A stretch of 64,000 nt of DNA, the filler included, from Globobulimina sp. (Eukaryota): assembly GCA_003354225.1 (NCBI GenBank). It is 14 parts of 14 records of this genome, joined end to end, with 100 filler letters (N's around TTAATTAATTAA, not from the genome) between each part and the next. Parts side by side here need not be neighbours in the genome. Positions count along the whole stretch, not along the records: positions 1 to 4,494 come from PIVH01001190.1; positions 4,595 to 9,086 come from PIVH01001191.1; positions 9,187 to 13,677 come from PIVH01001192.1; positions 13,778 to 18,267 come from PIVH01001193.1; positions 18,368 to 22,851 come from PIVH01001194.1; positions 22,952 to 27,434 come from PIVH01001195.1; positions 27,535 to 32,017 come from PIVH01001196.1; positions 32,118 to 36,599 come from PIVH01001197.1; 6 more parts are not named here. One strand, written 5' to 3'. Shown piece by piece: positions 2,201 through 61,880 of the stretch (its first letter is position 1; the number at the start of each line of letters is the position of its first letter). A program made the position numbers and the translations under genes. The notes beneath the pieces are model-generated. The model worked only from the letters and a program-made list of their open reading frames with translations, made no database searches and had not been told where the DNA came from.

Positions 2201-3988
2201 TTACCCCTGATATGTCATTTGTGGATCCTCATCATCCGATTCATCCGTTGAACCTATTGCGGATACAACAGTAGCATTTTTTTCTTGTGGATGTCCAATC
2301 CCTAAATCATCATCGTAAGAATCTTCATCCTCGTCATCTATATATTTGTAGTATATAATAACATTTTGAAATAATTAAAAACTGTATATCAACTTAACTA
2401 ATTTTAGCGCCAATAAACTCATCATTATCTCTAACATGTTTTCTCCTTTTTGAACTGCGTCTTGTTTTATAAATAACAATAATAATAACACATATGACAT
2501 AAATTATAAATCCAAAAATAACACCATATACAACTGGCGCATTTGAGTTTGCTTTATCTTCAAATTCATCCAATATAGTTTCAATCACACTGCTACTATT
2601 TGTTGGACTTACTGTTGGTGTGAGACTACTTGAGCTAATACTTAATGTTGGAGATATTGTTGGTGCTAATGTAGGTGTTGTTGTTGTGGTGGTTGTTGTG
2701 GTGGTTGTTGTGGTGGTGGTGGTGGGTGGCGTGGTGGTGGAGGTTGTTGTGCTGGAGGTGCTTGCGGAGGAATTGGTTGTTGTAGTTGGAGCAGCAAATG
2801 TATAGCGGGCAACACCATCTTGAATAATTGGGGCACATACAATATCAGCAGATATCTTTGAAGTTCCAGCCACAATGGTTTGTCCACCAAAAAGACACAC
2901 AAAACTATCATTGTATAATGTATCCATTTGAAAGTCAGTGAGTTGCACAGGCAAATCAGGTCCAACATACATATCATCAATTCGACAATCAAAAATATCA
3001 ACATTTGATGAATATTGATTGACACTGTATTGACCACCGGCAAGTATTATAATGTCGTTATTAACAGCTGTTGCTCGCGAATATCGAACATTATTATATG
3101 CAATATCTAATATTGTGCATGTATCAAATCCGGTGTTGAATAAATCGCATTTTTGTATTATTCCGGTATAAGATTGCGAATTATTTGCGGAATTGCTACC
3201 TATGTCACCACCAAATGTATATAAATGATCTCCGCAAACTGCACAACTCTGATATGTTTGACCTATGGCTAATACACCAAATGGATTTATAAACCATTCA
3301 TCATTTTCCATTGAATATACCTGGAAAATGCATTATTTTTAATGCAACAAAAATGCGCGGATAATTGGTACGGAGTTTATGTACATACATTTATCTGTGT
3401 TGACGTGGTAACATCGGATGGATTTATGCCACCAATAATATATAGATATTGTGCCTCGCGAGCAATGCATGGTTGTCGAGAGGTTAAATGTTGCGTCGAT
3501 TCAAATGAACAAACTTGAGTTTCCACATCACATTTTAAAAAATAATGTTCATCCGGGTTTGCTGCATAAATCGGTTCGATGATATAAATGTTATCATCAT
3601 AAAATCCCGCCGATTGTTGTTTGCCGTGCCATGCACTTAATGACCAATTTAATCCTAATTCAGATGCATATAAATTATGTACATGTTCTGATGTGCTATG
3701 TAAAGTTAAAACGTTTATGTAAAGTAAAAACGTTGTGACATACGCACTTAACATTGCTAGTGTGTCATCCTGAATATTAAATGTAACAGTTTCAACAAGA
3801 TTTGTTGCTTCTTTGGCAGATATTAATCCTCCGGTAACATATGCAGTGCTTGTTTTTGGATCCACGGTGCCATAAAATTGTGTCGTGGCTAGGTTTAATG
3901 TACCAATAATATCCCAATCACCCAACGAATACTGCTGTGCTTGCGATATTGCACAAAATCCCAATAAGATAAGCAAACTAGTTTTCAT
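2201..3988 (-). CDS. Type I membrane protein with kelch-like propeller ectodomain, Thr-rich stalk and acidic tail (at least 3 exons)
   Basis: Signal MKTSLLILLGFCAISQA; kelch GG motifs (YVTGG, YIIGG, YTFGG, ILAGG, LFGG); poly-T stalk; TM VVYGVIFGFIIYVICVIIIVIY. Introns 3321-3388 and 2338-2398 restore the frame. Confidence 0.8.
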
Positions 3989-4494
3989 TATATTATAACA
4001 AATTGTCACTAAGACTCACTCACTTTTTTTTTTCAACAATCGTTTTTGATGTTTGTTTTGAGGGTTAACCTGTATTCTATTTCCGGTGAATTTTATACGA
4101 GTTTTTTTTTTTTGAAGGAGAACCACTGAAAACTATGGAATCTATAATTTAATTAAATAGATTTGCCTCAAATCACAATCACAATGTCAACAAATTGGTC
4201 ATAAAAGAAAAGAAAACAACAAATGTTCTGACACACAAAACAAAGTAATTGGTCAACCCAAATATAGAATAAATAGTTAAATACATAATATTTGATTCAA
4301 TGATTTAAATGATTTAAAATTGTTTCTTTCACAAACTATCCTTAATTTAATTGATTATCATTATTGTATATTGAATAATGATGCAATAATGAAACTGCAT
4401 TCGCTTTATTCAGATTTGCTGATATTATTTCAAAACAATATCCAGTCGAACTGGATACTTCTTCATTGATTGTAGCGGCCCTCAATTTGGCGAC

Positions 4495-4594
4495 NNNNNN
4501 NNNNNNNNNNNNNNNNNNNNNNNNNNNNNNNNNNNNNNTTAATTAATTAANNNNNNNNNNNNNNNNNNNNNNNNNNNNNNNNNNNNNNNNNNNN
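4495..4594. other. Artificial contig linker (first of 13)
   Basis: 44 N + TTAATTAATTAA (stops in all six frames) + 44 N. Identical linkers start at 9087, 13678, 18268, 22852, 27435, 32018, 36600, 41182, 45763, 50343, 54921 and 59499. Internal contig lengths decrease or stay equal from 4492 to 4478, so the contigs are size-sorted and not neighbours. Confidence 0.99.
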
Positions 4595-4790
4595 TAAAAA
4601 TAAGTTGAAATGTTCAATAAGTGGATGTTGGAAAGATGAGAAGAATAAAAAAGATGGTAAACAAAGTTGGATTTATTATCAATATTCGGCATCACCCATT
4701 AAATCATCATCATCATTTACAGCCACATTGGAGAGTTATATTGAAAGCAGTGGACATTATAATGATTTATTAACATTTGAATCAGTATGA
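4595..4790 (+). CDS. 3' fragment of an unknown protein
   Basis: Short ORF at contig start followed by a T-rich 3'-UTR-like tract; no family recognised. Confidence 0.35.
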
Positions 4791-4935
4791 AATCATAAAA
4801 ACATAATCATATGCTATTTATTATACTTTTTGTTGCTTTTTTTTATTTTATTTTGTTTGTATATTTTACAGTTTGCGATGATAATAAACAAAGAAAACAC
4901 AGTCTATAAACAATCAAAATCAAATCAATTTTGAA

Positions 4936-7900
4936 TTAAATGCCGAGATCAGCAATATTAACATCTTCGAGATTTAAGACAGTTTTGGCTTTGTTTTTGT
5001 TTTCTGGATTTAAATGGATTGCGGCCGGCTCGTGATCAGTGAAAAGAAAATCCATTTTAGCCTGTCCGACATGCCATGATTGCGCTTCTTTTCTGTCATT
5101 TTGGTCATCAAAGTCAACAAAAGGTCGGCTCACTTGGTCGATCATCATATCACCACACAAAGCACATTGATTTGCCGCATATTTGAATAAATCCGCCTGA
5201 CACTCAAAAAAGGGCTCTTTTGCGCCAATCTGTTTCTTGTATTCAAAGATGCGCTTTTTTAAGGCATCCAATCTGAAAATGTGCGTACATGGAAATAATA
5301 TGAAGTGCGTATTCAAAATGGCTTTCTGCGATAAGTCGCATTTCCGATTCGATGTAATCATCGATGAGCGCAGCAATAATTGTTTTGTGTCCTTCCTGAT
5401 TTCCTGCGCATTGTCCGTGTAATTATCCATTTCCTTTTGCAACTTTTGGATTTGCTGCGAGTACTTCTCCAGAGACTGTTTGATGTCTTTTTTGAAGGGC
5501 CCAATCTCTGTGAAATCCTTTAAATGCGGCAAGATGTCCTCGATGGACAAGCAGTCGGACTCGGAAATGATGCGTAAAACTTGATTGATTTGGTCGCTCT
5601 CCAACTTATCCACCACATGGCGCGCAATGATGAGCCACAGCCGCTTCTCCTCGCTCTTATTGCCGTGGATGGAATACGCGATTTTCTTGGCTAACTCGTA
5701 GTGGTTATACGGGATGGTCAGCGCCAAACGGATGGCCTCCTCGAACAGCCTCAGAATGACGTACAGCTCGACGCAGCTCCGGTTCTTCCTTTCTTGGTGA
5801 CAGAGTCGCAGCGCATACTTGACGTCGAACAGCGGCTTCTTTTTGTTGAGCTCAATGAACCGCAACAGCTCCTTCTCGGACTTCTGTTTGCAATACAAAC
5901 TGATCAAATAATTGTGGATCGCCGCATCCTTCGACTTTTCGTGTCCTTTCTCGATGCAATGCACTAAGTACCGGATGGCCTGATTGCGGTGTTCCAGCTC
6001 CTCGCGATGCCCCATCTCATTCTTGTTATTGTTATTATTATTATTCTGATTGTCGTGGTGCTGCCTCGCCGCACTCTGACTGCTGTTGCTATGGTCGTAC
6101 CTCATCAGCGCAGGGATCAGTTTCTTGGGGTCCAAGCTCGCGATTTTGATTAACATATCCACCGTATCCGACGGGTTGGAATACATCAAAATGGGCGCGA
6201 ACTCATAGTACAACTCCTCGTTTTGCGACGGTTTCTGCAACGTCGCCAGCACTCGAATGGCCATTTTGTACTCATGGTTGTGGACATAATGGTTGATGAC
6301 CCATTTGTAGTCTTGTTGGATGCGCGCAAACTCCACCAACTGTTTGCTGCGGCCATGCGACGCAATCAAATCGAAGACGACCTGCTTGCAGTTGGCCAAT
6401 GTGTTGCGATATGACTTCAGAAAGTCCTCGAACGCCGTCACCGCCATCAGCTCGTCCTCGTTGTCGGCACTCTGCGCCGCGAACTGGTTCATTTGACTCA
6501 AATGCATCTCCGTCAGCCACGTCGCTAAGATGACCCGCTGCGTCTTGTCCTCATTGTGCATCCGGTTCAGTTTCTGCCGCAAAAACGTCATCAACGCGTC
6601 GGTGGCGCCCACATTCAGGAACTTCAGCGCAATTTCTTCGAACGACACGTCCAGCCACAGGCCGCCGAGGTTCGCCTCTTTGTCCTCTTCGATGTCCGAC
6701 AGCTCCACGTATTTCAACGCCGCTTCGTTGAAGCGGTCGGTCTCGAAATAATACTCGGCTTCGCACCGCAAAATCTTTGACTTTTGCCAGTTGTTTCTGG
6801 CGTACTTCTTGGCGTTGGCGAAGTCTTTGTTTGACAGAAATAGTTGCCACACATCGCGCGATTCGTCGACGGCGCGGATTTGGAAGATTTGCGACAGCGA
6901 CATGACGTAAATAAAATTGTCGGCGATGGCGATGTCCACCACGCTCTCGTTGGCTTTGCACGGCATTTTCTCGAAATTGACGCATTTGGAATTCAAGCGA
7001 TTGATTACGAGATAGCAGTCGCTGTACACCAATATGATATGGAATTGCGTCACGGCGAAGGAAGTGGGCACAGTGTGTTGCAATCCGTGCCAGTCGTCGT
7101 CCATTACATTGCTGTTATTGTCGCTAAACTGCTGGTCGCCGCCATACGCAATGATGTTTTCGTGGATATTGTTGCCAATCACACCCGTTTTGGGGGTCAC
7201 ATGCGAGCCAAATACAGGACGGCATAATACGATGCCGGGCTCAGTTAACCAGCCGATGGCTTCCGCCATTTGATTGTGCGGCTTATACACGCATAATTTG
7301 GTATGTTTGAGGGATCCTTATTGTTATACAGATTATATATATGAGTGCAAGGATGGATATATTTACATATATTAAATGCATATTTCATACCAGGTATTTC
7401 CTTGAATATATCCTGTTTATCATCATAAAATTTGAACACATCGTCATAGGTCGGACCGCCAATAAATTCAAATATCTTCGAGGGAATCACAGCAATGATA
7501 TAGAAGCGTTTGGCTTCGTTGTCTTTATCGCGTTTCTTGTCGCGTTTATGGGCTTTGTCCCGAGCGTTGTTTACGAATCCCAAGGATTTCAAGGCTTGGA
7601 TTTGTTGGTCTTTGTCGTCTTTGTATTCGAGGATGGAATTAATAGAAATCGGGTTGGCATTGTTGTCATCGTCGTGCTCTTTGGCAACGTTTAAATATTC
7701 GATGTGGAGGCCGCAGACACGGAAACAAGTGGATTCTGAGTGGTTTATATGCGCCGCCGAGGAGGAGGAGGACGGAGAGGTATTGCCATAGGATCCGGTT
7801 TTGAGATCGTATAATTTGTTGAAGATCTTCTCTTTGCCGTCGCTGATTTGCAAGGAATAGATGCATCCGTTGCTGGTGCCGCATAAACATAACCCGGTGC

Positions 7901-8369: not shown

Positions 8370-8429
8370 GGTTGTCAGTGAAGTATTAATGCTTTTTAAC
8401 CACAAACATCACAAAAAAACCCGAAGAAC

Positions 8430-9086
8430 ATGTCAACGAATCCGGATGGAACTGTCGAACTTACAAACCACGAAGCAGAAGAAGAAGAAATCAAAGTCAA
8501 AGATGAGCCTAATTTGGAAGAAAAAGACAAAGACTTAATTGAAGCAGCCGCGCTTTTTGAATTTGAAAAATCTGTGTTCCATAAAAAAATAGAAGCAGAT
8601 GTTCAAAGCGTATTGGATGAAAACATTGGTTGGCGATTACTCGACGAAAAATATAAAACCGTTCGCAAACTTCGTCAAAAATTCCCCAAACTAAACGACG
8701 AAGACATGATGGATTTATGTAATATGGGCTTCGCAGATTTATCCAACGCATACAGCAACAAATCGGCTTTGGATGATCAAGAATTAACAAATTTAGTTCG
8801 CCGAGCTTCCGATCGAAAATTGATAAAAAAGAAGCATCCTTTGCCCGTATTTTCTAACCGAACCTGGAAATTAAGCACCAACTCTGACGGCTGTTTGTTC
8901 GTAGAGTTGATCTTTGAATTTATATTCCTTCCATGTTACTTATTCGCGCAAACCATATTTATGTTTTGTTATTTGGTTCGCGGCGAATTGCCAGTCTCCG
9001 GGACCACTGATTTGGTGTTAAACGACCATTTTGATGTAACCATAAGAGGAACGCATAAGGAAAACAGCGAAAAACGCAAAGACAGC
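8430..9086 (+). CDS. Hypothetical protein, 3'-truncated, with one hydrophobic segment
   Basis: ORF of about 219 aa, divergent from VPS18 (60 bp apart), running into the linker. Confidence 0.6.
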
Positions 9087-9186
9087 NNNNNNNNNNNNNN
9101 NNNNNNNNNNNNNNNNNNNNNNNNNNNNNNTTAATTAATTAANNNNNNNNNNNNNNNNNNNNNNNNNNNNNNNNNNNNNNNNNNNN

Positions 9187-9433
9187 CCAAATTGGTCACC
9201 ATGGCTTTGTTGAAATATTTGCTCCGTAATAATGCGGTCATGGACTGTTTTTTTTTCTCCATTTGATAATAAAAGTTATCCAACATGCTGTCACCGAGCA
9301 AGATTATGTATGACGGGTTGTTGACTGAACCATCCGCCAATGCTTTAAACTCTATTGTTTGGGCATAATTTTCTTTCAACTCTTCGTCGTTGTTTTTGTT
9401 TCTGTTTTTGTCATCCTTGGCTTCTGACGCCAT
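9187..9433 (-). CDS. SGNH/GDSL-like hydrolase, 5' fragment
   Basis: YIILLGDSMLDN resembles the GDS block I motif; truncated by the linker. Confidence 0.6.
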
Positions 9434-9473
9434 GTCCAAGAACTGGCAAGTTTTTTTTTTTGGAAAAACAATT

Positions 9474-11461
9474 TTATTCTTTTTGACATTCAGTGAGTAT
9501 GTAATTTGTCAACAAGCGGACACCATATCCCGTGGCACCAATACTTGACTGTTCGTGGCCTTTTTTATGGCTCCAGACAGGCCCTGCAATGTCCATATGA
9601 GCCCAACTCGGTATCTTTTTATTATTCGACGTATTTTCCACAAACCGTTTCAAAAACAATGCCGCTGTGATGGCGCCGCCATGTCCGCCCTTTTCCGCAT
9701 TTTGTAAATCAGCAATCTCCGAATCCATAGCGTTGCTATAACTATTTTCTCCATTATCAAAAGCACAGTCATCAAATAACGGCATTCTCCATAACCTCTC
9801 GCCCGATAAATACGCGCTTGACAACAAATCATTTGCTAACTTATCATCATTGCAAAAGAGGCCCGCAATTTTATTCCCGGCGGCTACTTTGATGGCACCC
9901 GTCAACGTGGCCAAATCGATGAGAATGTCCGCACCAATTTGATTGCGTCCATACCAAATGGCATCGGCCAAAGTCAACCTGCCTTCCGCGTCGGTATTGG
10001 TCACCTCAACGGTTAAGCCTTCCGCTGACTGTATAATATCGCCTGGATGCAGCGCATTTTGCTGTTATACATTGAAAATAATATATTGACTGTTTTATGT
10101 ACAACTTAACTTTGCCAGATATCATATTCTCGATTCTCGCAAGCAGCCACAAGGCCATGTATTTCATACTTATTTAGAATGTGCGTTGCCAGCAATGGGT
10201 TGGCAGCAAAGTGCCGAGATAAGGCAGCAAACGTCGCAATGACTGCAGCAGAGGCAGCCATGTCATATTTCATATGTTCAATCATCGAAATTGCGCCAGT
10301 TTTGATATTATAACCACCAGAATCGAAGCATACGCCCTTTCCAACTAAGACAATTTTCTTTTTATTAATGTCGGCGTCGACAGAGAGATGAGGAGCGGTT
10401 AGATTTAAATGTATGAAATACGGCGAGTTATTTGAGCACGCTGCGACAGCTAAAAATGAATGCATATGTAAGTCAGCACATTGCTGTTCATTTAAAATGT
10501 CGATATTCACAAAATTAGATTGCAAGGATTGCGCAGAAATTGCTAATTGTTGAGGTGTCAGTATATTTGCGGGCGCGTTTACTAATTCTCGCGCATAGCC
10601 AATGCCGCTACTTATGCATTCACCTAATTTCATATCATATTCATTTTGCTCTTCGTTGCCTGTTTTATCGCATAATATGGTCACATTGTATTTGCTATCA
10701 TTATTGGCGCCATTTGGCTCATTTTTGTTGGATTTAAATCGAGCGTCTTTATGACAGCAAATATTTAGCGATTCGACTAATGCTTGAATTTGTAAATTAC
10801 ATTTTGATGCAATGTAAATGGAACAGGATTTGAATGATTTATTTTCACACATAACATTATTTATAATTGTTGAAAGTCCACGGCTTTGTTGTAATGCATC
10901 AGGAACCAAATTGTTTCCGTTTTGCAATGTTTGTGAGCTATCTTTGCCCAGTGATACAAGCAATATTTTTTTAGGGAACGAATACGGTAATTCATCGCCA
11001 CAAATCCGAGCAATAACATATTTATATTTTGATTCATTTTTTAGGATTTCTGATTCTGTCAATAATTTTGATAAAATGTTGCCATGTTTTTGATTTAAAC
11101 GAATTGCTTCAAAGTCAAACAATTGAGATAGATTTAAAAGTGGTAATTCAGGCTCTTTTTCATCTGTATTGCTTGCAATGCGTTGTGGTTCCGATGAAAT
11201 AATCATTTGTGGCGTATGCTTGTTTGTGTCATGATAGATTGGTAAAACAATTAAATCACTTTCTAGTTCTGTTAAACGTGGTGCATTCTCTCCTGAATTG
11301 ATAATTTTATATTCAATCGGACAGAAATGTTCATAGTTTGTACGATATTGATTCAATTTGAATGATGTTGCTAGGGAACTAAAGTGTCGATAGTAATAAT
11401 GCTTGAATAAGCTGGATGTTGGCTGGTAATATTTGGGAAATAGTCTCAAATAGTTTGTCAT
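9474..11461 (-). CDS. M17 leucyl aminopeptidase with mitochondrial-like presequence; frameshifted in this assembly
   Basis: RELVNAPANILTP, LVGKGVCFDSGG, MKYDM, NTDAEGRL, IDLATLTGA, WAHMDIAG. Intron 10062-10110. A 7-nt tandem duplication at 10126-10139 breaks the frame. Confidence 0.92.
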
Positions 11462-19518: not shown

Positions 19519-21382
19519 ATGTATCCCAATCAAATACACAACAACAACAACAAGTTTCAAGAGGAAGAAGAGGAACCATCTTTACAATATGTTGTCCAAT
19601 CTGACGCATCTCCTTTGCCAGAGCCAGAAGAGCATGCATCGATTGAAATAAGTGTTGAAGCAGCTGTTGAAATATCTGATCACTTTGATTTACCAAAAAA
19701 TATATCAAATAATACAATCGTAATAAATGAGGTTCCATATCATAAATCTGTACCTAATCAATGGCGGAAACAATGCAAAAAACACGTTAATATATCTTAT
19801 TTTTTAATCTTTAACGTTGTAAACCTGCACAGTTTGAAGAGTTTTGGAGGGATTATTTTTATATGTTATTCGATGATTTGAATTCAAAATACCATCAACG
19901 ATTTGTCGAGCTACAACTTGATGATATTCGTTGTATACCTTTTCTGAACGAAAAACATTTATTAATGTTTGTCCATATGATCACCAGCGACGCGCAGAGA
20001 GCCATGCAACTGATCCAAAGATTCAATCAAAATAAAGACATAGTTTCGTTTATTTTTCTATTATTGAGCATGCAAACAACTTTATACATGTTTTTGTGCA
20101 TTTGTATACACTCAGTTTTTTGGCTGGGTATCAAACACATGTCAATGTCCCAAATATGTTTCCAATTTTGCAGATGCCGGCATTTTAACATGGAACATCT
20201 TTGCAAAAGAAATCGTAGCTAAGTCCGATTTAAACGATATTATTCCAGAAAATCAAAAGAATAATAACTTTGATAGGAAAATGTTGTGGAGGAATGTACC
20301 CAAAGATGTGTGGGATTATTATCAAATCGATCGGAAGAGTACAATCAGTAAACGACACGAATTGGCATCCTTTTCGCCGTCGCCGTTGTCGATTAAAACC
20401 GACAATTTGGCGCCTGATATTTCGTGGAATAAAAGCAATGAAACACCGCAGAGGTTTGTGGAAATATTGTGGATTTTTTTTATTATATTGTTACTGATAT
20501 TTGATATTGTGGTTGCTGTACTAATCGGTTATATTTATTTTATTGATGCTGATGTTCCCAAAGAACTGGATATTATGCCATATCTACTGAGCAATGTGCT
20601 GAATCCGATGCATTTTATGATACAGTTATTGTTGATATTAGCATGGATGGAATGGGTAGTATTTGTTAAACATAATAAATGCACAAAATACATACGATGG
20701 GTTATCGTCGTGGTGTTACTCGTGGCTGTTTTCATTGTAATTTTCTTTTTAATGTTTGATGTTTTTATACATTTTACACAGTCAAACCATAGGTTTATTT
20801 TGTATATTGATGAGATTCAAAGAAGTAAATTGTATCACAATGCATGGCTTATTTTGAATGGTGCTGCATTTGTGATTATATTAATTGTTATTGGCTGCAT
20901 GTCAGCCTTTAAAATAATGAAAAAAAACATTAAACATTTGGCCTTACTAAAAGTGGGAGAAAAAACAATTGTGACAAACCTGGAGAAAAATAGTGGTGTA
21001 TGTTGCTGTAAATTGTTTAGTTATTTGTCGTTGACTGTTGTAAAATATTTGTTATTGACGATATTGATCAGTATGTTAATGTTTACGCAAACTGCAATAT
21101 GGTTATATTTGAGATATATCAAAAGTGCAAAAACGATAAATTATGAAATCATTATTTTTGCTTCAGATATGTTATGTGTTTTATTTGGCATTTTATTAGT
21201 ATGTTATTTGAAAAAACAAAGAACAAATTATGAAAAAATTGAAGAAATGCATCACAGCAAAAGAAGATTCAGTCCACAGCTATCTGAGGTACGTATTTTG
21301 TTTTTATATATCTGACAATGGTCAAATATTAAAACGTTAACAGGACGGATCTGGTTTCTTTAATAATACACCAATGTTATAA
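19519..21382 (+). CDS. Multi-pass membrane protein with N-terminal SAM-like repeats (4 exons)
   Basis: Introns 19786-19832, 20043-20115 and 21289-21343 join three ORFs and a terminal exon in frame. YHQRFVELQLDDIRCI and YVSNFADAGILT are SAM-like; about 6 hydrophobic helices follow. Confidence 0.7.
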
Positions 21383-33081: not shown

Positions 33082-33234
33082 TATACGCGGCGATGGCCCA
33101 AAACAGAATATGTTCGGTGCTATACAGGTTTTATATGGCTTCGCCGGCCACCACTATGTACATCATGCAAATTGTCAAAAATGTATAAGTTTTTGCTGTA
33201 TCTATACAATCCGCAGAAAATTGTACATCATGCA

Positions 33235-40047: not shown

Positions 40048-40180
40048 ATTGCCAACACAAAAAGGCTACGTGATCGTTACGTGGTGCAAATGCGTCAAGT
40101 TTAAGATGTTTAACTAGAACTTTTTAAAAAAATCATCAAAATAACAATGTCAACTTTGCAAAGGTAGCACACAATAACAT

Positions 40181-41454: not shown

Positions 41455-43479
41455 TCAGACCTGATGTAAAAGGGGAGGTACAATGTCTTGCTGTTCATAA
41501 AAATCGGTATCTGTATAAGGAGAGTTTGGTAATGGCGGTACATTTATGGATGGCACTTTGGACGAAATATTGTTAATAATCACCGGTTTTTCTGCCGCTA
41601 TATTCAAACTACTCTGCGTTCTGTTGCTATTTGGCGGAGTTTCCATATTATTCCCGGACTTATTCATATTGTTCGCATCGAAGCGGATCGCATTCGGTTT
41701 AAAGTATAATTGTTGGCTGTAATAATTCCTGTGTTTGCTTTTGTTTTTGTTCATATGATAGACACCGAATGGAATGTTATGCGTTTTGTTATTTAATATG
41801 TTATTTGTCTCAGGGAACGCGACTCGAACCGCCGCAGCTGAGTTTAGTGAGGTGGTACGACTCAAACTTTGCGGCGCGGACTTTATCGTAAATGTAGACT
41901 CAGATCCGATGCTCGCGGCATCTGGCAACGGATTTAAATTATTTTCGTCGTAATCGACCAAACGACTGATGCTGATTTTGGGTGAATCGAATTTCTCCAT
42001 TTCTGTTTTCAGCTTTTCTTCTTTTTTTTGATTATTAATTTCGATCTGGAAATTGTTCTTCCCCTCACCTTTAATTGTGGGCGGCCGCAACAATACGCCT
42101 TTTGGTGGATGTTTGGTGGTTTTATGCGGTTTCAAACCATGTGAGACGCCGTCCAATTTAACATTGGGTGAACTGGGCAATTTCGCCGAAATATCGACTG
42201 AAATGTCATCAAATTCCAGACCATTTTCAATGGAAACACTGCGTGGGACTGGTTTCAAACTATTATGGCCGTCCAATGTGTAATGCGAATCAGTATGACT
42301 CACATTGATAGGTTCAGTTTGAAACTGATCCCCATCCCTTTCTCGAATACACTCATTGTCACTGCCAATATCATCCATTTTATCATCATCGCAGTCCGTG
42401 GCCATATGCGTATTTTCATTATGCGCCATTTTCAAACCGATATTGGTGGATTGCTGAGGAAGAATATACAAGTCCTCACTGTCAAATTTCTGGTGTTTCT
42501 GGTTCGAAACAGACAGACTCAGAGGTTTCGTTTTTGAAAAGCCTTCGTGTTGCACTTCAGTGTGAGTCTGACTCTCCTCCTTATTATCACTATGCGTCTC
42601 TGTCTCCGTCTCATCATCGTTGATTTCTGGAATGTCCACAAGTGTCTGTTCTGTGTGGCAATTGGTTTGTGGCTGTGGCTGTGGCATAACCTCATCTTTT
42701 TCATCCTCGCTCAGCATGACAGAGCCATCCGTTTCATACGATTTATTGTGATGTGATCGCCACGATAAGTATGAGCCGCGTGCTTCAGATTTAATGTCAA
42801 TTGCTTCGCTCGATAAAAAGGATATTTTTCGAGTGCTTGGGTTCGTTTTTAGTTCGGATAACTTTTTTAATTCTTGATTCATATGTTTTTGCTTCTTTTT
42901 CTCGCCAAAATATAAGCCGATAAAACATAACGCGACTACTAACACGCAAAAACAACAGAGGATTATCACGAAAAAACCGGAAAAAAACACGACTAATAAA
43001 GATTGGTCCACTGAATAGTTATTATCGTTGCTCGCAAAATTAATGTTAGTCTTTGAATTGCCGTTATTTGCTGTTTGGTTTGTATATATATTTGCATTTT
43101 GATATCATATCACAACTAAACTCGTAATTGATGTCGGTGGACAGCCATCACCTTCGCATTCACAAATTGCGTGGTTTGCGTTTGTGTTGCAAGTTAATGT
43201 TGAATTTAGGCATGAAGAATATGAGCAGGATAATAGACATTTATTTGCATTTCCAATACAAAATACGTTGATATTTGTACAGGAGGACTGTGAGTGACAG
43301 TTAATTAATGTGTTGTTGGATGATGAATATATTTGGATGTTGTCACAATTAGAATCAGTACAGTCAATGGTACATCGATTTTCCGAGATGTCACATACGA
43401 TATCCTCACCTTTGCCTATAATAATCTGCCCATTTACAGCAGCGATAAAAAATATGAAAACAACCAATAATGGTGACAT
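41455..43479 (-). CDS. Type I membrane protein with Cys-rich ectodomain and long disordered cytoplasmic tail (2 exons)
   Basis: Signal MSPLLVVFIFFIAAVNG; CxxxxSC repeats; intron 43071-43121; Cys-containing TM; tail of about 480 aa. Confidence 0.8.
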
Positions 43480-45869: not shown

Positions 45870-46628
45870 ATGTGGCATTACCTATCTCTTATCATCATTC
45901 TCTCGCTGCCATATATAGTTTAGTATCATATATATATATATATATTTCTATCTTATGGTACAACATAAAACAAAAACAATTAGACTTTATCACAAAACTT
46001 CGAGAATACCCGTATGTATTTAATTTGATCGAATGGTGTTTTTGTAATATAATTTAAATTGCTATACAGAGGAAACAACATTATTATGGACATTGATATC
46101 AACAAACCAAAATATGCAATTGCATGGATTTATAATCGAACATCCATCAGTTTTAATGCTCCGATCGGCCGATGGTCGAGGTGCGATTTGGTGGGCCTGG
46201 GAGTATAAAAACGCAGAGGCATTGGCCATATTGGCGGTAAACGGCGTTGATTTACATTATTCACAAACCGATAATGATGGAAAGAAACCGTTTGAATTAT
46301 GTGACAGTTATGATGTTACTTTGCAGGAAGCGCAATCTATGATTGATTCCAAAAGAAGTGAAAAGGAAAAATTTAAAGAACAGATTCGCTTAGAAAAAGA
46401 AAAAATGTTTTTAAATGAAGATGACGCAGAAGACGATGACGATGATGATTTGGAAGATGATGATGATGATATGGACGATGATGATGACTTTAGTGGCTCT
46501 GGAAACGATGATGACGATGTTAAGTATTTTTATAATATATTTGTTTTGAGTGCGAGGATATGTTATAAATTTCTTGAAATTACAATATATAGAATGATGA
46601 TGATGAGTTCTTCCGCGATGAATTGTAA
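45870..46628 (+). CDS. ER-luminal ankyrin-repeat protein with acidic tail and RDEL signal (4 exons)
   Basis: Introns 45918-45983, 46012-46069 and 46519-46592 give a signal peptide, an ankyrin-like RSADGRGAIWWAWEY...DNDGKKP, poly-D and a terminal FFRDEL*. Confidence 0.82.
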
Positions 46629-47502: not shown

Positions 47503-50342
47503 TCATTGCAAAATAGAATTATATTCCTTTTCAAACTCATCTTTATCCAACAAATGTACTTTTGAATTTCGTTTTTTGTTCTGATAATAATTATATTGTT
47601 CTTGATTAAAATCAATATATTCATTCTTTCCTCCATCCTCTTCCTCGTCCTCATCCTCATCCTCCTCCACATCCACCTCATCATTGTCATACATATTAGC
47701 ATTATTTCCATGTTGTCCTTCTTCATTATCACTATCAATAATCACATGTCCTTGATTTATATCATCAGAATCACTGTCATTCTTATATTGATATAGTTTC
47801 CTCCTCTGTTTTACTCTAGTTTTTCGATGATATGTCGACGTCGCTTCCTCTTCCTCTTCTTCCTCATCATCATCTTCATCTATATTCGCTTGGGGTATCT
47901 CCATATCATCGTCCATATCATCCATATCATCATCGTATATTTGCGGATCAGAATTTGTATTGTTATTACTCGTACTCGTACTGGATGTGGTTGTCGATGG
48001 ATCCGTATATCTGTTCTTATTCTTTAATCTGCGTAGAAACCTCTTACGACGCAGAAATTTACTGCTGTCATACTGCATTGGTTGAGACTCTTTCCTCGCT
48101 GCACCCGCATGTCGGTGCGCATATAAATCACTCTCATCCCCTACCAACAAGTCATCATCTTCTACCATGCCATCATGCTCTTCCTCCTCTTCATCGTCAG
48201 ACATCGATGATTGATCAGATACATCCTCCAATACATCCTCCTCTTCTTCATCCTCATCCTCATCATCCTCATCCTCTTCATTTGGTTGTTGTTCGTGTTC
48301 ATCGCCAAGATCTAATGAATCGATCCTAGTCATCAATGATTTGTTGTGTTTTGGACTGGATGGCAATGATATGCTCCGTCGGGGTTTCATCGCGAAGCTT
48401 GGCTGTTTATTAAATACTAAGTCGACATCATATGAGTCTTTATTCTGCCGTTCCATCGCCAACTTATCATGATATTTGCTGAAAGTCGTCTGCGTGGTCA
48501 TCCATTCAAACTGCTTACGGAAATTCGTGGATTGCGATGATTTGTTATGACTGCCCCTGGCATTGGCATTGGTATTGGTATTGGTATACGCCTTATTCTC
48601 GCGTACCATTTGTTGCATTTCATGGCTGTTTTCATTGTATGAACGTCCCCGTTTTCGCAACAATGGTTTACTATGAAACTTTGTAAAATTATGCCCATTG
48701 CTGGCCACAGGCGCAGAGGGGTTGGCATTGCCGTTTTTACTCTCAAATTTATGTATCGCTTCCTGTAATTTCTCATCCATTCGTTTCAAAAAAGCGTCCC
48801 TGTTCTTGCGAAAAATGGATGTCGGTTTCAATGGTTTTGTATTATTTGCCGCAAATTGATACGGATTGTTATTCGTCGTTATATTATCAAACGTGTCATG
48901 CACCGCCGCACTGCGCGCCCCATCCATGTAATATTTACCATCGCCATGCTTCCGCGTGTTATGACTCAATGAAGTATTTAATTTGGGTAAATATGGCAAA
49001 CCATTGGCGTTATGTGGCAATGCGTTGTGATTGGCGCTGAAAATAAATTCATTTTCATATCTCCGCGGTGATGTTGGTTGTGAGCGACTGAATCTTTTCG
49101 GGAGTCTGAAAAAAAAGAAATTTTATATTTCTTCAGTTTGGAACTGGCAAATATAGAAACATATACCTTTGGGTTGGTATGACCGGTACATTATTGTGGG
49201 TGTTGCCAATGGAGGTATTGAACTTTTCGCTGATCTCTACAAAATATTCATCGCTCAACAACTCATCGTCGGACACCTTCGGTGGCAATGGTCGGATGGG
49301 CATATTTTGTTGTTGTTGCATAATTTGCTTAGACTTTGCTTTAATTTCCTTCCGCAATCTCTTGGCTGCTTCTTCGACATTGGACTTCCGGTGTTTTGAT
49401 TTGCGTTTTTTGCTTTTGCTGTGCGAATGAGAGTGACTCTGTGTCTGTGTCTGCGAGGATTGCGAGTGAGAAGAGTTTGAATGATGACTTAAGGAATGCG
49501 AATGATGCGACGATATGGGACTGACCGACCGGGGCATCACAGGCATGGGCGGCATGGACATCGGGATGTGGATGCTTTGGAAGCCCAACTGTTCATTACT
49601 AAAATCACGCGAATGCTTATTTTTTCGCTTTCGTCTGTTGTGCGAGTGAGAATTGCTGTGCGTGTGTGTGGGATCCTTTTTTTTTGCTTTGGCTTTGATT
49701 TGTTGATAATCATACAAGGCATCGTTGATTTGCTTGCCGCGATGAAGGATCACTTCTCGATTTAGAGGGTAGTCGTATAAATGGTGCGTGTATTCGTTCA
49801 AAAATGAACCCCGTCGTGACGGCGGACGGGATCGTGGTTTTTTATGTGGCTCATCCGATAAATCTGATGTGTCGTCCTCATCGTCGTCGTCGTCCTCCTC
49901 CTCATCGTCAGTGGACTCGTCAGAGGAGGTATTTTGATCAGGTGTTTGTGGTTTGGATTCGCGATGTGATGTTTGGTTTTTCTGTGTCGGAAGCATTGTG
50001 TAATTTGTGTTTAGGTTATGATTGCGATTACGATTGCGATTACGATTCATATTATCGATATCATCCATGATGTCGTCATCAAATTCAATGGAATTTTCCT
50101 CAGTGATTGCTTCTGCGGGCAACATATCTATGCCATCGTCATCCACATCAACTACATCTGCGTATTTATGCGATTTTGCGTAAAAACCATTAATTAAATA
50201 TATATTATATATATTATACAATATACTAAACTGTGCCGAGGGAGGGAGCGTACATTGAAATTATTGGAGTGGATGGTGTTAAATTGGGAGGAGAGAGGTT
50301 GTTGTTGGTATTTTAATTTTTTGTGGTGTTTATATTTTGGTT
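47503..50342 (-). CDS. Large low-complexity acidic, Ser/His-rich protein, 5'-truncated
   Basis: Introns 49106-49166 and 50158-50231 link the ORFs in frame; D/E tracts, SH repeats and basic clusters. Confidence 0.75.
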
Positions 50343-50614: not shown

Positions 50615-51916
50615 ATGTCTTGGACATGCAGTCTATGCGGCATATTAAACAAAAACAACCATGAAATCTGCCAAGCATGTTTTACAAATGTCGGACAATT
50701 TAATTTATATTATGAACCTACCACAAATCAGCCAACACAGCCACAAACCAAAAAACAAATCAACTATATCTCAATGAAAACACCTCCGTTTATATATCAA
50801 AATGAAGATTCAAAATCAATTTTTTATTATTATGCCAAAACAACTGAGAAACATTACATCATATTTTATATCAATTACAATAAACACATACCGCTATTGC
50901 ATGAGTTTCCGGCCCATTTGTCAAACAAAGCTGTATTCCATGCATACGACATAGAGATGAATAATTATTTTGAACTCACACAGCTTCCTTTTGAGTTACC
51001 ACAGCAATTATTAATAACAATTGTTCTCAATACTGACAGGAATGACATTTGTTTATTTGTTGGAAGTGATCGTTTATTAGCAACCTTTAACATTGATAAC
51101 AAAAAATGGCATATTTCAAAATCTTGTTTAAAAACAGTTAGTGGCGGAAGTAACAGCTCCGATGCTATCACTATTCGTTACATATCCGCAGTGAAACAAT
51201 TTTGTATCAATGATGGTAATGTGTGGAAAAAATATAAGGAAAATAAAAAGTATGCGATAATATCATCAGGCGAGCTGCAGAAAAATGACACTTTGTTAAA
51301 GTTCAAATTGAGGCATGTTCCCACGTTAAAAATGGTGTTACTGTTTGGAGGGGAATATGAAAATGATGACGAATGGGATATGGATTCTGATATTACTGAG
51401 ATGGCATTGAATGAGCAGATGTTTTTTATTAAAACGGACAAAATGAAGAATGATAGGGAACGATGGAAACGATATAAAACATTGAAATTGCCAAAGAAAA
51501 AATGGGTTTATCATGAATTGCTGGCGTTGGGTTATATATTAATTGTGTTTGTGATTGATCTGAATGGACACAGGGATGATATGGAAATATGGTGTTTGGA
51601 TTTATTATTTACCCATAAATGGTTTAAATGTGATAAATGTTTGCGTATAGGGCTAACTCTAACAATTCCGGATAGAGTATGTCTAACAAAATATGATTAT
51701 GTTTATGCAATGATGGCACATGAAAAGTACAGTAAATATATGATAAAGTTTCATGTTTCGGAAGTAATTCCGAGTAAATTGGCAAAACTTTATATGTCGC
51801 ATTTTTCTAAGTTTGTATGTGGTTATATTCGAGCAGAGATCGAAAAGAAAATTAATATGCACGTTCCAATGGATTTGAAACAGACTGTTTTTGCTTATTA
51901 TTATCCTTTGACTTAA
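50615..51916 (+). CDS. RanBP2-type zinc finger plus degenerate kelch-like protein
   Basis: WTCSLCGILN...CQAC; LLFGG; C-terminal VPMDLKQTVFAYY box-like helix. Confidence 0.78.
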   Translation: MSWTCSLCGILNKNNHEICQACFTNVGQFNLYYEPTTNQPTQPQTKKQINYISMKTPPFIYQNEDSKSIFYYYAKTTEKHYIIFYINYNKHIPLLHEFPAHLSNKAVFHAYDIEMNNYFELTQLPFELPQQLLITIVLNTDRNDICLFVGSDRLLATFNIDNKKWHISKSCLKTVSGGSNSSDAITIRYISAVKQFCINDGNVWKKYKENKKYAIISSGELQKNDTLLKFKLRHVPTLKMVLLFGGEYENDDEWDMDSDITEMALNEQMFFIKTDKMKNDRERWKRYKTLKLPKKKWVYHELLALGYILIVFVIDLNGHRDDMEIWCLDLLFTHKWFKCDKCLRIGLTLTIPDRVCLTKYDYVYAMMAHEKYSKYMIKFHVSEVIPSKLAKLYMSHFSKFVCGYIRAEIEKKINMHVPMDLKQTVFAYYYPLT

Positions 51917-51947
51917 ATTTAATTTACAAAAACTTTAGTTTTGCTTC

Positions 51948-53873
51948 ATGGCAGCTCAAAATAAGTTGAGCATATCAATGGAAGCAATTAAAAAACGAAT
52001 ATTCGAAAGTGCGACAAACCAACCCACCACAATCGATAATTTGAGTCATTCCCTTATCGATAGATCTAGAGTGCGCCTACATACGCCAGACATAGTCCAT
52101 GCCACATCAATCCAAACCCTTGTCGATAATCCATCAACTCCATCAGCTGCAGCTCAAGCCACAAATCATACTCTCGTTCTCACATCAACTACAATTCAGA
52201 TAATACCACCGCCCAAACCAGACACTCCAAGCCCATACATGGGCACCCAAATATGGCCAAACACCGTTACAACACCACCCACAGTTACATCTACATCCAC
52301 CTCCACACCGCCACAGACCACAGAAATAGCCACATTGCCCACCCCATACACCACCAAATATTTAACCGAGATCAATAAACACAAAATCCCCTCCAATTCT
52401 GACGGAAAAGCCATGTCATTGACCATACATTTGTGTGGCTGCAAATCTATCCATATCAGAATCTTCCACATCTCCTGGATCACGTTGTTCAGTGCATGGT
52501 TTTGCTTATTTAGTTTGCATGGTTTTGCTTACAATCAATCCGATTTACATTCAGACCCAACGAGTTTATCCATAGCGACTGGGGTGAGATCAGTGTCCAC
52601 CCTGTTATTTAGCGTATTTTTTGGCGACTTATGTGACAAAGTTGGTGCCCGCTATGCATACTGTTGCTTATTAACAGTCTCTTTCTTCTGTTTCATTGTC
52701 ACCATACTCGCCTCATACAACAGTGTCTCGTTTATAATCTTCTCTTTCTTGACGGGCATAATCGGCGCAGCCTTTGTGATCACACAATACCATATCACCT
52801 CCTTCTTCTCCTCCAAATGTGTGGGCGTTGCCAATGGTTTAAGTGCGGGATTGGCTTCTTTTATGTCCATGTTTGCGGCGTCCAATCTCCATTTAATTAG
52901 TCGTGCTGTTGGCAGTCAAGCAAATATTTCTGAAACGATGTCGTGGAAACTTACCTTATTACTTCCGGCATTGTTGCTGTTTCTGATGATATTTGTTTAT
53001 TATTTTTATACCATTGACTCACCGAAAGGCAACATCTCAAAGGAACGGATCACGAAAAGATTAATATTTACGTTCCAGAAATATAAATGGAAGCGAATTG
53101 CGTCCGATTATCGCATATGGATTTTGGCTCTGTCATATTGCATTTCGTGCGGAATTCGAATGACTGTTTTAAACTACTTTGTTGATTTTATAATGGAGAC
53201 GTTTTCAGCTGAAAGGAATTATGCGCAGTATATGTTGGTCGTGCTTTATATGACAAGTTTATTCGACCGAGGCTTTGGTGGGTATTTATCGGATTTGCTG
53301 TATTTGAAATATGGAATTCAAGGTCGAATCTACTGTTTATTCTTTGCGTTATTGTTTGAAGCTGCGTTTTTATTTTTGTTTACAATGAGTGCGTTTCATT
53401 TTGGTTTTACTATATTGATGGTAACGTTCTTTATTATTTATGTTCAGATTGCTGAAGGTATGTAAATGTGTTTTGTTATGTTTGTTCTGTTTGTGTCGGA
53501 GCTGTGTATCTGAGATTTGTTAATTGTTATTGTCGCAGGTATTGTGTTTGCGATCGTGCCCAATTTACCGCATCAAAAGTATATTGGTTTATGTATGGGG
53601 ATAGTAGCAGGCGGAGGCAATTTTGGTGCACTGTTTGGGAGTTTTTTGTTTGTGCAGGTTCCGGGCTCTGTTTCTTATAAAACTGCCTGGCTCATTTGCA
53701 GCGTGTTTGTGTTGGTTGCATCGTTTGCTGTGTTATTTGTTAAATTTACGAGAATGGAAATACAAAATGATTTGAAAAATACAGCTACCGATTTTTGGAC
53801 ATGTATGGGGACGGAATTTAAACCCGTTAAGCAAGACGGAGGTAAAGGTACGGTCGGATTTGTCATACATTAA
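51948..53873 (+). CDS. NRT2: Nitrate/nitrite porter family (NRT2/NarK-like MFS) transporter, divergent (2 exons)
   Basis: HIRIFHISW, GDLCDKVGAR, GAAFVITQYHITSFFSSKCVGVANG, DSPKGN, RGFGGYLSD, AEGIVFAIVP, GIVAGGGNFG; intron 53458-53538. Confidence 0.88.
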
Positions 53874-56582: not shown

Positions 56583-56649
56583 TACTGAGTAATAAATTAA
56601 TTCCCCCACTGACACTGCAGTTGTTGTGAAAGAAGCATTTTTGTACGTC

Positions 56650-58670: not shown

Positions 58671-59498
58671 ATGGGCGTCTGTACATCAATGACAGCAGAA
58701 GAGAAAATGCAATTAGCTGAACAAAAGAAATTGAATAAGGAGATTGAGAGAGAGCAGAATCAAGCAGCCGATTCGGATGAGGCATTAAAGAAATTATTGC
58801 TTTTAGGAGCGGGAGAATCGGGAAAATCGACATTATTTAAACAGATGGTGAGTTTATATGGAAAGGGTTATTCAGAGAAAGAAAGGAAATCTTTTCGTGC
58901 GGTGGTTTACAGCAATACGATAACTGCAATGAAATGTTTATTGGAGAATAGCGAGGAGTTATCCGCAGCGGGTATTGAGGGCACAAAAGTCGATGATGAG
59001 AATGCGAGCAAAGCAGAGTTAATCCGTAATTTAAGCGGCGATGAAGCATTAACTGAGGAGATATGCGAAGCGATCAATGTTTTATGGTCAAAAGACTGTG
59101 GAATCAAATGTACATTTGAGAATCGAGCAAAATTTCAATTTCCAGACAGCGGACCTTATTTTTTTGCTCGAATGGACGCGATGATTGCCGCCGATTATAT
59201 ACCGACCCAACAAGATGTGTTACGATCGCGTGTCCGCACCACCGGCATAGTCGAGACCAGTTTTGAAATCGAAGGGAATAATTTTAAAATGTTTGATGTT
59301 GGCGGACAGCGAAATGAACGTAAAAAATGGATCCATTGCTTTGAGAATGTGACATGTGTCATATTTGTGGCTGCCATCTCGGAGTATGACCAAGTCTTAT
59401 TTGAAGATGATAGCACCAATCGAGTCACTGAAGCATTGAATTTATTTGATGAGATTTGCAACAGTCGCTGGTTCACCGAGACCTCCATCATATTCTTC
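58671..59498 (+). CDS. Heterotrimeric G-protein alpha subunit, canonical, 3'-truncated
   Basis: MGVC start; GAGESGKST, RSRVRTTGIVE, DVGGQRNERKKWIHCFE. Confidence 0.96.
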
Positions 59499-60276
59499 NN
59501 NNNNNNNNNNNNNNNNNNNNNNNNNNNNNNNNNNNNNNNNNNTTAATTAATTAANNNNNNNNNNNNNNNNNNNNNNNNNNNNNNNNNNNNNNNNNNNNAA
59601 GAAGAAAAACTATCAATAATTATAGGTGGTGTTAAAGGAATATGCAATGCATTTGAATTACATAAAAAATAAGTGTGACATGAGCAATAATTGAGTGATA
59701 AAAATTCCATTTTATTTAACAATAATAAAAATAAAAATGAAAACAGTACCAATAAATATAAATTATGTAAATTGGTAAAAAATATTGCTTGATCTACATT
59801 TTTTAGGATATGATTTTCATTTTTATTACACAGAAATTGGTTATTTAATAAATATAAATCATTAAATATATTCACTAATAATGATATGAATATTATCACA
59901 GAACAAAATACTTTAAAATACAATAAAAGATGATGAAAATTACGTAATTTATGATGCAAATATACTAATTTTAAAACAGATTGGTAAGGACATTGGAAAT
60001 AGGAAAACTTTCCAGACATTTCAAGGAATGGATATTTGGAGGAGTCTCCACAATTTTGAGACTTTAGATTGTATTAAAATTTAATCTCCAAAATATTGTC
60101 AGATGTAAACAAATGGAAAGTAATAAATAAACAAGTTTCTTGTCAAGAACCGCGAAAATATGATTAAAGTGTGTAAATATTCATTGGTAATCGAACCATA
60201 ACATAATATTTGATATTTCCATTTTTTGTCATAAAAAGTACCAAAAAACCATTGCTAGTATGTTCAAAGTAGATGC

Positions 60277-61880
60277 TCAAATAATGGTGTTTTTCACAAC
60301 TGTGTGGATTGTTTCGTAATTTTCCATATTCATATCAGATTCAGCATAATTTTCGTCAACACTCTTATTTCCGTTCAATGATTGTGTATCAATCCCTTTC
60401 TGTGTCTCCATTTCATACACAATATCACTGTCTGTGTCTCCTTCAACATCCTGTATATGATGCTTATGATCATCGTCATACATAATCAAAGTTCCAGCAG
60501 TTATTTTTCTTCCCTGTGTTTGTTGCTGTTCCTGTTTCTGTGCTTTTGATAAATACATATCCTCACCTTTTGTGTTATGAATTTCTTCCAGTTGAGCTTT
60601 ACAAAAATAATGTCGCTGTGGCTGTTGTATCACATTCTTATCTATTTCTGTTAGTACCATTGGCGTTTGCTCCATTGGGTCAATATGATGCTGTGTGTTC
60701 ACTTCGAATTCCATTTCCAGTTTCTCTGTTAACTCTTTTTTCCCACCCAACTCTGGCACAGATTTAGTTTGCATTAATATTTTCCTCCATATTAACACTA
60801 TCAAACCACAAATTACACACAAAGTAACCAATGATAAGGCAATCACAATTACAATGGTAACTGTGCTCATTTCACTGTTCTGGTTTGGGTTTACTGATTC
60901 CTTTTGTTCTGTTGTTGCAATTAAAGTGGTGGTCATTTCAATGACTTGTCCATCTGTCACTGGATATGACGTCGGACTGCCAGTTGGCGCTCTTGTTTCT
61001 CCCTTAAATGTTGGAGACAATGATGGTGATGCAGTTGGATTGTGGCTTGGTGCCAATGTTGGTGCATCAGACGGAGTATTCGAAGGTGGCGATGTTGGCA
61101 TAGTGCTCGGTGCCAATGTTGGAGTACTTGATGGAGCTAAAAAATAAAAAAAAAAAAGATGTTTGGAAATTGTAGCAAATTTTTGCAATATACAAACATA
61201 AATGGTCTGGCTCTGAAATTATTTTAGTTATAAATTAATTGCAATATACCAGATGTCGGATTTTGTGTTGGCGATGCAGTTGGAATAAAGGTGGGTTGTG
61301 GTGTTGGATTGGTGGGGTTAAAGGTTGGTGTTTTAGTTGGATCGAATGTGGGAGAAATAGTAGGCGCAGCAAATGGCGGTGGGAAGGAAACAGGACAATT
61401 AGGGCCAGAACAGAGGAAATGAGAGGCTCCATTTATATCTACAGTCAAAGTGTGGCAGGTATTTGAGCCATTTTTGCATGTTACAGCACATGGCGCAGCT
61501 GCTTGACATTGGAAGTGTGCATTGCCAGAGCAAGCATTGGACCCAACACACGTTATATTTATAGAGGTGGCGTTATTTGGTATCAATTGCGAATCGGTGC
61601 ATGCTTGCGAGCCATCACAATTCAATGAACACGGATAGCCGGAGGCACAGCGCAAATTAAATCCTCCTTTGCACCAATCTGTACCAATACAACTGAGTAA
61701 ACAAACAGTACAACAAAAAGCGGATTAATTTGTATAAAATTCGCAGATATCGACATTTAACTTTAATAAACATGGCTCGGCAGCACGACAAATACAACTA
61801 GCTGCTTTCAGACATTCTATTGCATAAATTGAGTGATAAATTGTTGATAAGACGAAAAATAAAAAAAGCAACGCCATCAT
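60277..61880 (-). CDS. Type I membrane protein with Cys-rich repeats, PT-repeat stalk and Tyr-containing tail (3 exons)
   Basis: Signal MMALLFLFFVLSTIYHSIYA; introns 61693-61761 and 61137-61249; PTxxPT stalk; TM IVIVIALSLVTLCVICGLIVLIW. Confidence 0.82.

Follow-up and report, generated by a model that had tools for sequence, protein, structure and literature searches.

Recurrent donor sites with the conserved G-T at +6/+7 in short introns of the foraminifer Globobulimina sp.

In ordinary 5' splice sites (donors), a G at the last exonic position (-1) compensates for weak intron positions, and sites without it need strong pairing within the intron, including a G at +5; to our knowledge, the donor logos of the animals, fungi, plants, and protists studied so far all keep this +5 G. 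Entamoeba reportedly has the donor consensus GTTTGT, with a T at +3, and the human shifted (+1) register, in which pairing with the U1 small nuclear RNA (snRNA) is displaced by one base, was reportedly first described by Roca and Krainer in 2009. The introns in a 64,000-nucleotide (nt) stretch of the Globobulimina sp. genome (GenBank assembly GCA_003354225.1), referred to here as the window, include a recurrent class of donors that begin with GTT and carry the conserved G-T at +6/+7 instead of +5/+6. As judged by alignment with homologous proteins, this class is real and has four verified members, whose core motif is GTT(A/T)AGT. It resembles the Entamoeba consensus in that short introns of an AT-rich protist open with GTT, although the G-T of Entamoeba is at +5/+6, in the canonical register, and it departs from ordinary -1G/+5G compensation in that the compensating block of the intron is displaced by one base and is not merely stronger.

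The class is known in kind from human shifted registers and is found here in a variant form and with a striking placement. Tan et al. 2016 (PMC4856993) describe human sites at which U1 pairs in shifted, bulge(+2/+3), or asymmetric-loop(+3/+4) registers, and the mammalian background offered in a first-pass annotation of the window was right on this point. In that paper, the noncanonical registers are tested by mutational and suppressor-U1 experiments, the validated ones together amount to ∼1.5% of 201,541 human 5' splice sites, and 68 bulge(+2/+3) and 349 asymmetric-loop(+3/+4) sites are predicted; the model site of the asymmetric loop is ACAG/GUUUAGUAUA, and GUUUAGU is a model sequence. Offset registers are otherwise not known except as rarities, studied with human minigenes in that work. 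Like the human shifted-register sites of the same source, the Globobulimina sites are of the GUUAAGU type, with the first intron G predicted to pair at the usual place of -1G, the A-G-U lying one base further in, and cleavage placed at the first GU. The GUUUAGU form is the model sequence of human asymmetric-loop 1 (+3/+4), and for GUUAAGU a drawing with the U bulged at +2/+3 serves just as well.

The window consists of 14 separate contigs of 4402-4494 nt each, in descending order, with a GC content of 32-44%, joined by N44-TTAATTAATTAA-N44 spacers; the contigs are thus independent, as had been supposed. Junctions were tested by colinearity with homologous proteins, with rival GT-AG models scored, and "verified" here means verified by homologs. 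Removal of introns restores a frame colinear with homologs in the M17 aminopeptidase gene, in the VTC gene (5/5 homologs), and in a gene designated gene J (7/7 orthologs). The verified introns, together with the microexon that lies between two of them, are as follows.

10062-10110, minus strand: M17 aminopeptidase intron, 49 nt, donor a/GTTAAGT, acceptor AACAG.
24519-24577, minus strand: VTC (polyphosphate polymerase-like) intron, 59 nt, donor a/GTTTAGT, acceptor TTAAG.
45918-45983, plus strand: gene J intron 1, 66 nt, donor a/GTTTAGT, acceptor ATTAG.
45984-46011, plus strand: gene J microexon, 28 nt, encoding TLSQNFENT(Q).
46012-46069, plus strand: gene J intron 2, 58 nt, canonical-register donor c/GTATGT, acceptor TACAG.
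46519-46592, plus strand: gene J intron 3, 74 nt, donor t/GTTAAGT, acceptor TATAG.

In the M17 gene, a full-length ortholog (P0122; 67% identical) has the same length as the window product across the 10110 junction, with the intron directly after ..ENMISGK, and this model scores 2294, versus 2230 and 2217 for two rival GT-AG pairs. A genomic open reading frame (ORF) of another M17 relative (P0121) ends ..ENMISGKV*, implying an intron at the same spot that begins with GTN followed by a stop codon. The ortholog sets the end of the gene at a stop at 9474-9476 and its start inside a 459-codon ORF; two further frame-compatible M17 introns are therefore rejected, one at 9521 (minus strand), which P0122 contradicts, and one at 11523 (minus strand), which the ortholog probably contradicts, and ORF continuity alone can thus yield false junctions. 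As assembled, the gene also has a 7-nt tandem duplication (CGAGAAT twice, 10126-10139, minus strand) within the conserved ..CENMISGK.. motif, which shifts the frame just 5' of the intron; the gene may be a pseudogene, or the duplication may be polymorphic or an error of assembly.

The VTC gene has two in-frame GT-AG pairs, GTTTAGT(24577)/24519 and GTATGC(24570)/24509. Splicing with the first unites both halves of the Pfam VTC domain, preserves the conserved M-x3-D-x3-WG...RTxYRRT spacing without gaps, and outscores the second by 14-18 BLOSUM62 units in 5/5 homologs, by which the GTATGC donor at 24570 with acceptor 24509 is ruled out. The first-pass annotation had held that the rival GTA site near 24577 is out of frame, which is so if the acceptor is unchanged; with acceptor 24509 the site is in frame, and it is homology that eliminates it.

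Gene J (45870-46628, plus strand) codes for a small, conserved foraminiferal protein of ∼185 residues, assigned to the endoplasmic reticulum (ER), that belongs to no Pfam family. It has a signal peptide, an acidic tract, and the block DGRGAIWWAWEYKNAEALAILAVNGVDLHY, and it ends in FFRDEL, which resembles an ER-retention signal. Twenty-eight relatives were found and 27 compared; many are transcript-derived and 80-90% identical, and they include a Reticulomyxa filosa protein and MMETSP foraminiferal transcripts, one of them labelled Ammonia. The relatives have an 18-residue leader followed by SQNFENTQETTLLW and end in (D/E)FFRDEL, and the window matches them only with three introns removed. Exon 1 (MWHYLSLIIILSLPYI) and the microexon together align without gaps to the 18-residue leader of P0398 and P0396, the GT at 45918 is the sole usable one ahead of the in-frame stop, and SQNFENTQ is kept in the transcript-derived orthologs (MMETSP, EukProt, MERC). 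At the other end, splicing out 46519-46592 gives ..NDDDD/NDDDEFFRDEL*, the conserved C terminus of the family, and no other GT-AG pair reaching the FFRDEL frame was found. A single 154-nt 5' intron is outscored by the three-intron model, and an unspliced C terminus by the 46519 splice, each in 7/7 of the orthologs scored.

Related foraminiferal contigs contain ORFs that run past the gene J acidic tract as V-K-Y (P0413), V-T-F (P0416), and V-stop (P0415), suggesting that offset-compatible donors are probably not confined to this assembly; these three run-ons and that of P0121 are each compatible with a noncanonical +5 base. Scans for related gene J loci gave 525 pattern matches in metagenome contigs and 203 in genome contigs, none of which was confirmed in either set.

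The first-pass annotation listed ten donors of the form GTTWHGT, and all 10 heptamers are present at the coordinates and strands it gave. As used donors, four of the ten are verified and none is refuted, while three are just plausible and three are weak or ambiguous. Eight candidate introns stand beside the verified ones.

2338-2398, minus strand: candidate intron, 61 nt, in the cytoplasmic tail of a Kelch/transmembrane protein, donor a/GTTAAGT; plausible, placed by frame only.
33154-33279, minus strand: candidate intron, 126 nt, donor a/GTTAAGT, which would link a multi-transmembrane ORF with one for an alpha/beta-hydrolase; absent from the first-pass list.
43071-43121, minus strand: candidate intron, 51 nt, donor a/GTTTAGT, joining a signal-peptide/Cys-rich ectodomain to a transmembrane segment and tail.
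20043-20115, plus strand: candidate intron, 73 nt, donor a/GTTTCGT; plausible, the sole GT-AG solution for its ORF pair.
40996-41056, plus strand: candidate intron, 61 nt, donor t/GTTATGT; plausible, placed by frame continuity only.
26410-26480, plus strand: ambiguous intron, 71 nt, donor t/GTTACGT, with a rival donor GTATTT at 26415 that shares its acceptor.
50158-50231, minus strand: weak candidate intron, donor a/GTTTAGT, near a contig end.
3696-3752, minus strand: possible hidden in-frame intron, 57 nt, t/GTTAAGT..ACATAG, inside the Kelch-protein ORF and invisible to ORF logic.

All in-frame GT donors at 2398 are GTT, with 57 codons downstream that score as coding (18.3), and the three in-frame GT donors at 33279 are likewise GTT; there, the hydrolase ORF needs an upstream exon because no Met precedes its conserved core. 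The architecture at 43121 requires a frame change, with in-frame rivals at 43115 and 43112 that use an acceptor near 43050 (read by eye), and the one in-frame rival of 40996, at 40973, is likewise a GTT. Near 26410, the GTATTT at 26415 continues the frame of a different upstream ORF, and either donor may be the one used, depending on which of these low-complexity ORFs serves as the exon. At 50231, a 375-residue ORF reads through; its first in-frame Met (MLPAEA..) comes only downstream of the site, and no Met is present in the frame upstream. The site at 3752 is one of only six GTTAAGT in the window, is on the sense strand, and has a typical acceptor end. Relaxed Pfam scans of six ORFs were of no help for 3752, 33279, 43121, 20043, or 40996.

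By their sequence, the introns belong to the ordinary U2 type; they are rich in AT, measure only 49-126 nt, and have a GT start and an AG end in 5/5 of the verified introns and 16/16 of the other tabulated candidates. A survey of intron lengths in Rhizaria (PMC13746701) gives a mean of 87 bp for R. filosa, whose genes carry about two introns each. Cleavage is placed at the first GU by the exon ends that homologs set at 10110, 24577, 45918, and 46519. U12-type introns, the class with /RTATCCTT donors and TCCTTAAC-like branch sites, are ruled out, ATCC being present at +3 to +6 in 0/21 tabulated intron starts. A family derived from introners or transposons is also rejected, the best pairwise local score among the 21 introns being 23, versus 19 for shuffled sequences, with the excess due to (TA)n runs.

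The base preceding the GTTWHGT candidates (n=12) is A in eight and T in four, and never G or C, whereas, of the 10 non-GTT donors, eight have a preceding G and begin GTAT.. or GTC.., and two are H/GTATGT. The rule proposed at first pass, that GTT donors never follow an exonic G, accordingly holds in the re-derived set (0/12 GTTWHGT versus 8/10 non-GTT donors after G). The class had also been described as a canonical donor with one extra T, and here the description needs correction: the verified motif is GTT(A/T)AGT, and because no GTAAGT is seen among the 23 donors tabulated, in which the canonical donors are GTATGT or GTATnn, adding a T to the local canonical donor does not by itself give this class.

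The placement of the motif is more informative than its frequency. Since just 68 of 2281 GTT sites in the window (3.0%) continue as W-H-G-T, the presence of this continuation at intron starts is far beyond chance, with P ∼5e-13 for 10 of 14 GTT donors (the first-pass tally) and ∼8e-7 for 4/4 verified donors. The core GTT(A/T)AGT occurs 21 times in 128 kb (both strands), as 6 GTTAAGT and 15 GTTTAGT, and intron starts account for nine of these (4 verified and 5 candidates). All but one of the six GTTAAGT mark verified or candidate intron starts on the sense strand, the exception running antisense to a lipase ORF.

Among the introns of genes with homology or domain support (M17, 1; VTC, 1; gene J, 3; Ykt6, 1; Vps18, 1; MFS, 1; Kelch, 2), five of the 10 have GTT(A/T)AGT donors, one has another GTT, and four have GTA. 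The class may make up roughly a third to a half of introns, as judged from few and partly selected ones. In the human data of PMC4856993, validated noncanonical registers together reach only 1.5%, whereas here the class accounts for 4/5 homolog-verified introns (a biased sample) and about half of those in homology-supported genes; the GTT(A/T)AGT donor is rare in humans and looks routine in this foraminifer. Other differences from the human sites in the same source are that the class here is tied to the absence of -1G, that the human bulge and asymmetric-loop examples have an exonic -1G (CAG/ or AAG/) and the sites here follow A or T, and that the human registers were tested experimentally and the register here is predicted from sequence.

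Pairing was computed with RNAduplex using the conventional U1 5' 11-mer as quoted in PMC4856993, which may not be the organism's own U1 end. With this conventional U1, the +1-shifted register is predicted for 8/9 GTT(A/T)AGT sites, including 4/4 verified ones, and the canonical register (C8 with +1) for 10/10 non-GTT donors. In the shifted pairing, C9 is matched with +1G and A7 with +3U, followed by +4 to +7, with C4 opposite +6 and A3 opposite +7. Predicted energies for GTT(A/T)AGT are -2.9 to -5.5 kcal/mol, similar to the -4.2 kcal/mol of G/GUAUAN donors without +5G, and pairing is stronger than the mean of -1.3 kcal/mol for 2280 background GTT sites. These predictions support shifted or bulged U1 recognition, short of proof.

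The explanation we consider best, with slightly more confidence than doubt, is that these are U2-type introns, many with (A/T)/GUU(A/U)AGU donors, which a conventional U1 reads with its pairing offset by one base. Its 5' end (ACUUACCU) would pair the +1G of the intron with the U1 C that normally faces the exonic -1G, so that U+3, A/U+4, A+5, G+6, and U+7 would occupy the places of +2 to +6, and an exonic -1A could add a pair; such pairing would be equivalent to a one-base bulge or an asymmetric loop at +2/+3. U6, U5, and Prp8 would then direct cleavage to the first GU. Each donor class would be a way of anchoring one G on the same U1 cytidine, and it is for this proposed reason that GUU donors and an exonic -1G would be mutually exclusive.

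Several observations weigh against this explanation. The shifted register is predicted with a U1 end borrowed from PMC4856993, and RNAduplex does not place 43121 in it. The broad WHGT form of the motif proposed at first pass stands for its A-at-+5 core, GTT(A/T)AGT, which is verified, whereas the candidate forms with C or T at +5 pair poorly with conventional U1 in any register (GTTTCGT, -0.2; GTTATGT, +0.7; GTTACGT, -1.4 kcal/mol). Within the window as a whole, GTTWHGT is without enrichment, with 68 seen on both strands, 56.1 +/- 6.6 expected, and 68 reached in 3/100 shuffles. The verified sites were picked for testing as GTT, by which the sample is biased toward the class, and the probable GTT donor of the Ykt6 intron at 39590 (GTTACAAC) lacks +6G/+7T. 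Two related contigs show V-C run-ons in gene J (GTNTGY, canonical register). The offset and canonical forms may interconvert.

A lineage-specific change in the U1 (or U6) snRNA is an unlikely alternative that would make the class cognate. If U1 differed at the position facing +1G, CA/GUUAAGU would be fully complementary to it and G/GUA would be the mismatched class, held in place by -1G; this would fit the repeated use of GUUAAGU and GUUUAGU (4 verified, 5 candidates) with GTAAGT at 0/23 donors, the preference for -1A (8/12), and the strict either/or of -1G and GUU (0/12 versus 8/10), as expected of one U1 cytidine needing one G. Conventional U1 already accounts for the core motif, however, with energies like those of other donors, and canonical GTATGT donors without -1G are also in use (46012, verified, and 3388). 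Few RNA segments are as strongly conserved as the U1 5' end, and an Rfam search of the window found no snRNA gene, with no match at gathering score or E <= 1. In its strongest form, to which we give only a small chance, foraminifera or this lineage would run a re-registered donor code, with a U1 5' end differing from ACUUACCU, GUUAAGU as its cognate, and both classes docking a single G; this would be the first lineage with a large share of major-type introns on a +1-offset helix between U1 and the 5' splice site by design.

The shifted reading by conventional U1 also has to be weighed against the possibility, which we regard as quite improbable, that U1 pairing matters little in tiny AT-rich introns such as these, with intron definition and U6/U5/Prp8 selecting the first GU; instead of U1, the A-G-U at +5 to +7 would then reflect either a protein contact or pairing of the U6 ACAGA box around a bulge of one base. 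Introns of 49-126 nt, the range found here, are of a size at which recognition across the intron would be expected, and many donors are nearly unpaired beyond +3 (G/GUAUAA and G/GUAUAU, -4.2 kcal/mol), with low U1 complementarity throughout. According to PMC4856993, U1 does no more than mark the site, and cleavage is set by U6. Nevertheless, the -1G/GUU exclusivity and the -1A preference involve exon bases, which U6 does not read, and the block from +3 to +7 exactly matches the U1 complement in the shifted frame. That the whole class is an artefact of gene modelling, with GTT common in AT-rich DNA and the true junctions elsewhere or the ORFs belonging to separate genes, is very improbable. Frame logic did mislead at 9521 and probably at 11523, as the M17 ortholog indicates, 50231 and 26410 are doubtful, and the motif shows no window-wide enrichment; set against this, the four verified junctions are fixed by transcript-derived or full-length homologs with all scored alternatives worse, refuting an artefact for these four, and the chance that 4/4 independently fixed GTT donors carry WHGT is the ∼8e-7 given above.

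In the literature searched, supplements and subscription journals lying outside it, no description of a foraminiferal donor consensus was found, and an earlier report is possible; the consulted text on the introns of one foraminiferal gene calls their splice sites just "canonical" (PMC6783311). If GUU(A/U)AGU is routine in this lineage, the register between U1 and the 5' splice site would be evolvable at genome scale, and such a lineage would provide a natural test bed for uncoupling U1 pairing from cleavage-site choice by U6/Prp8. Gene finders trained on +5G may also mis-annotate foraminiferal genes, in which the 28-nt microexon and C-terminal exons of the kind seen here are easily missed.

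The remaining donors include one further GTT and several of the GTA type.

39507-39590, minus strand: Ykt6-type SNARE intron, 84 nt, probable, donor a/GTTACAAC, a GTT donor without +6G/+7T.
7317-7390, minus strand: Vps18 intron, 74 nt, donor g/GTATGA (-1G class), between ORFs carrying successive parts of the Pep3_Vps18 profile.
53458-53538, plus strand: MFS transporter intron, 81 nt, donor g/GTATGT; the downstream ORF is weakly MFS_1 (E 4e-5).
49106-49166, minus strand: intron, 61 nt, donor g/GTATAT, between two strongly coding ORFs.
3321-3388, minus strand: Kelch-protein intron, 68 nt, donor t/GTATGT.

The Ykt6-type gene (39319-40065, minus strand) has a single intron and codes for a longin domain and a SNARE motif, ending in CCTIL. 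Its longin ORF matches residues 14-135 of the Ykt6 chain and its SNARE ORF residues 138-199, with a linker one residue shorter than in rat Ykt6, and 39590 is the sole GT-AG solution of workable length for the ORF pair.

The domains in the long ORFs of the window are ordinary eukaryotic ones (M17 peptidase, VTC, Vps18, Kelch, G-alpha, MFS, C-type lectin, and others), a search for transfer RNA genes in the window found none, and ORFs called across the artificial N/TTAATTAATTAA spacers (e.g., 8400-9134 and 9131-9508) are artefacts. The best named relatives of the window G-alpha are from R. filosa and Spongospora; together with the named relatives of gene J, they indicate a rhizarian source, most probably a foraminifer. 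In R. filosa, the annotated G-alpha P0021 carries seven inserted residues (VSYVFQK) after SEYDQ, and a related genomic G-alpha ORF (P0033) departs into nonhomologous sequence at this same point, which looks like a shared intron position that is retained in one annotation; beyond this shared position after SEYDQ, the run-on ORFs of G-alpha relatives are too indirect for reading donors.

At 27722-27807 (minus strand), GTTTTGT occurs six times within 86 nt, in a small T/G-rich repeat adjoining a carbonic-anhydrase gene. At 51914-51950 (plus strand), the stop of a 441-codon ORF with a RanBP2-type zinc-finger-like N terminus lies only ∼31 nt before the ATG of the MFS ORF on the same strand, reflecting either very tight gene spacing or a fusion of both ORFs by a 52-nt GTTTTTGC intron.

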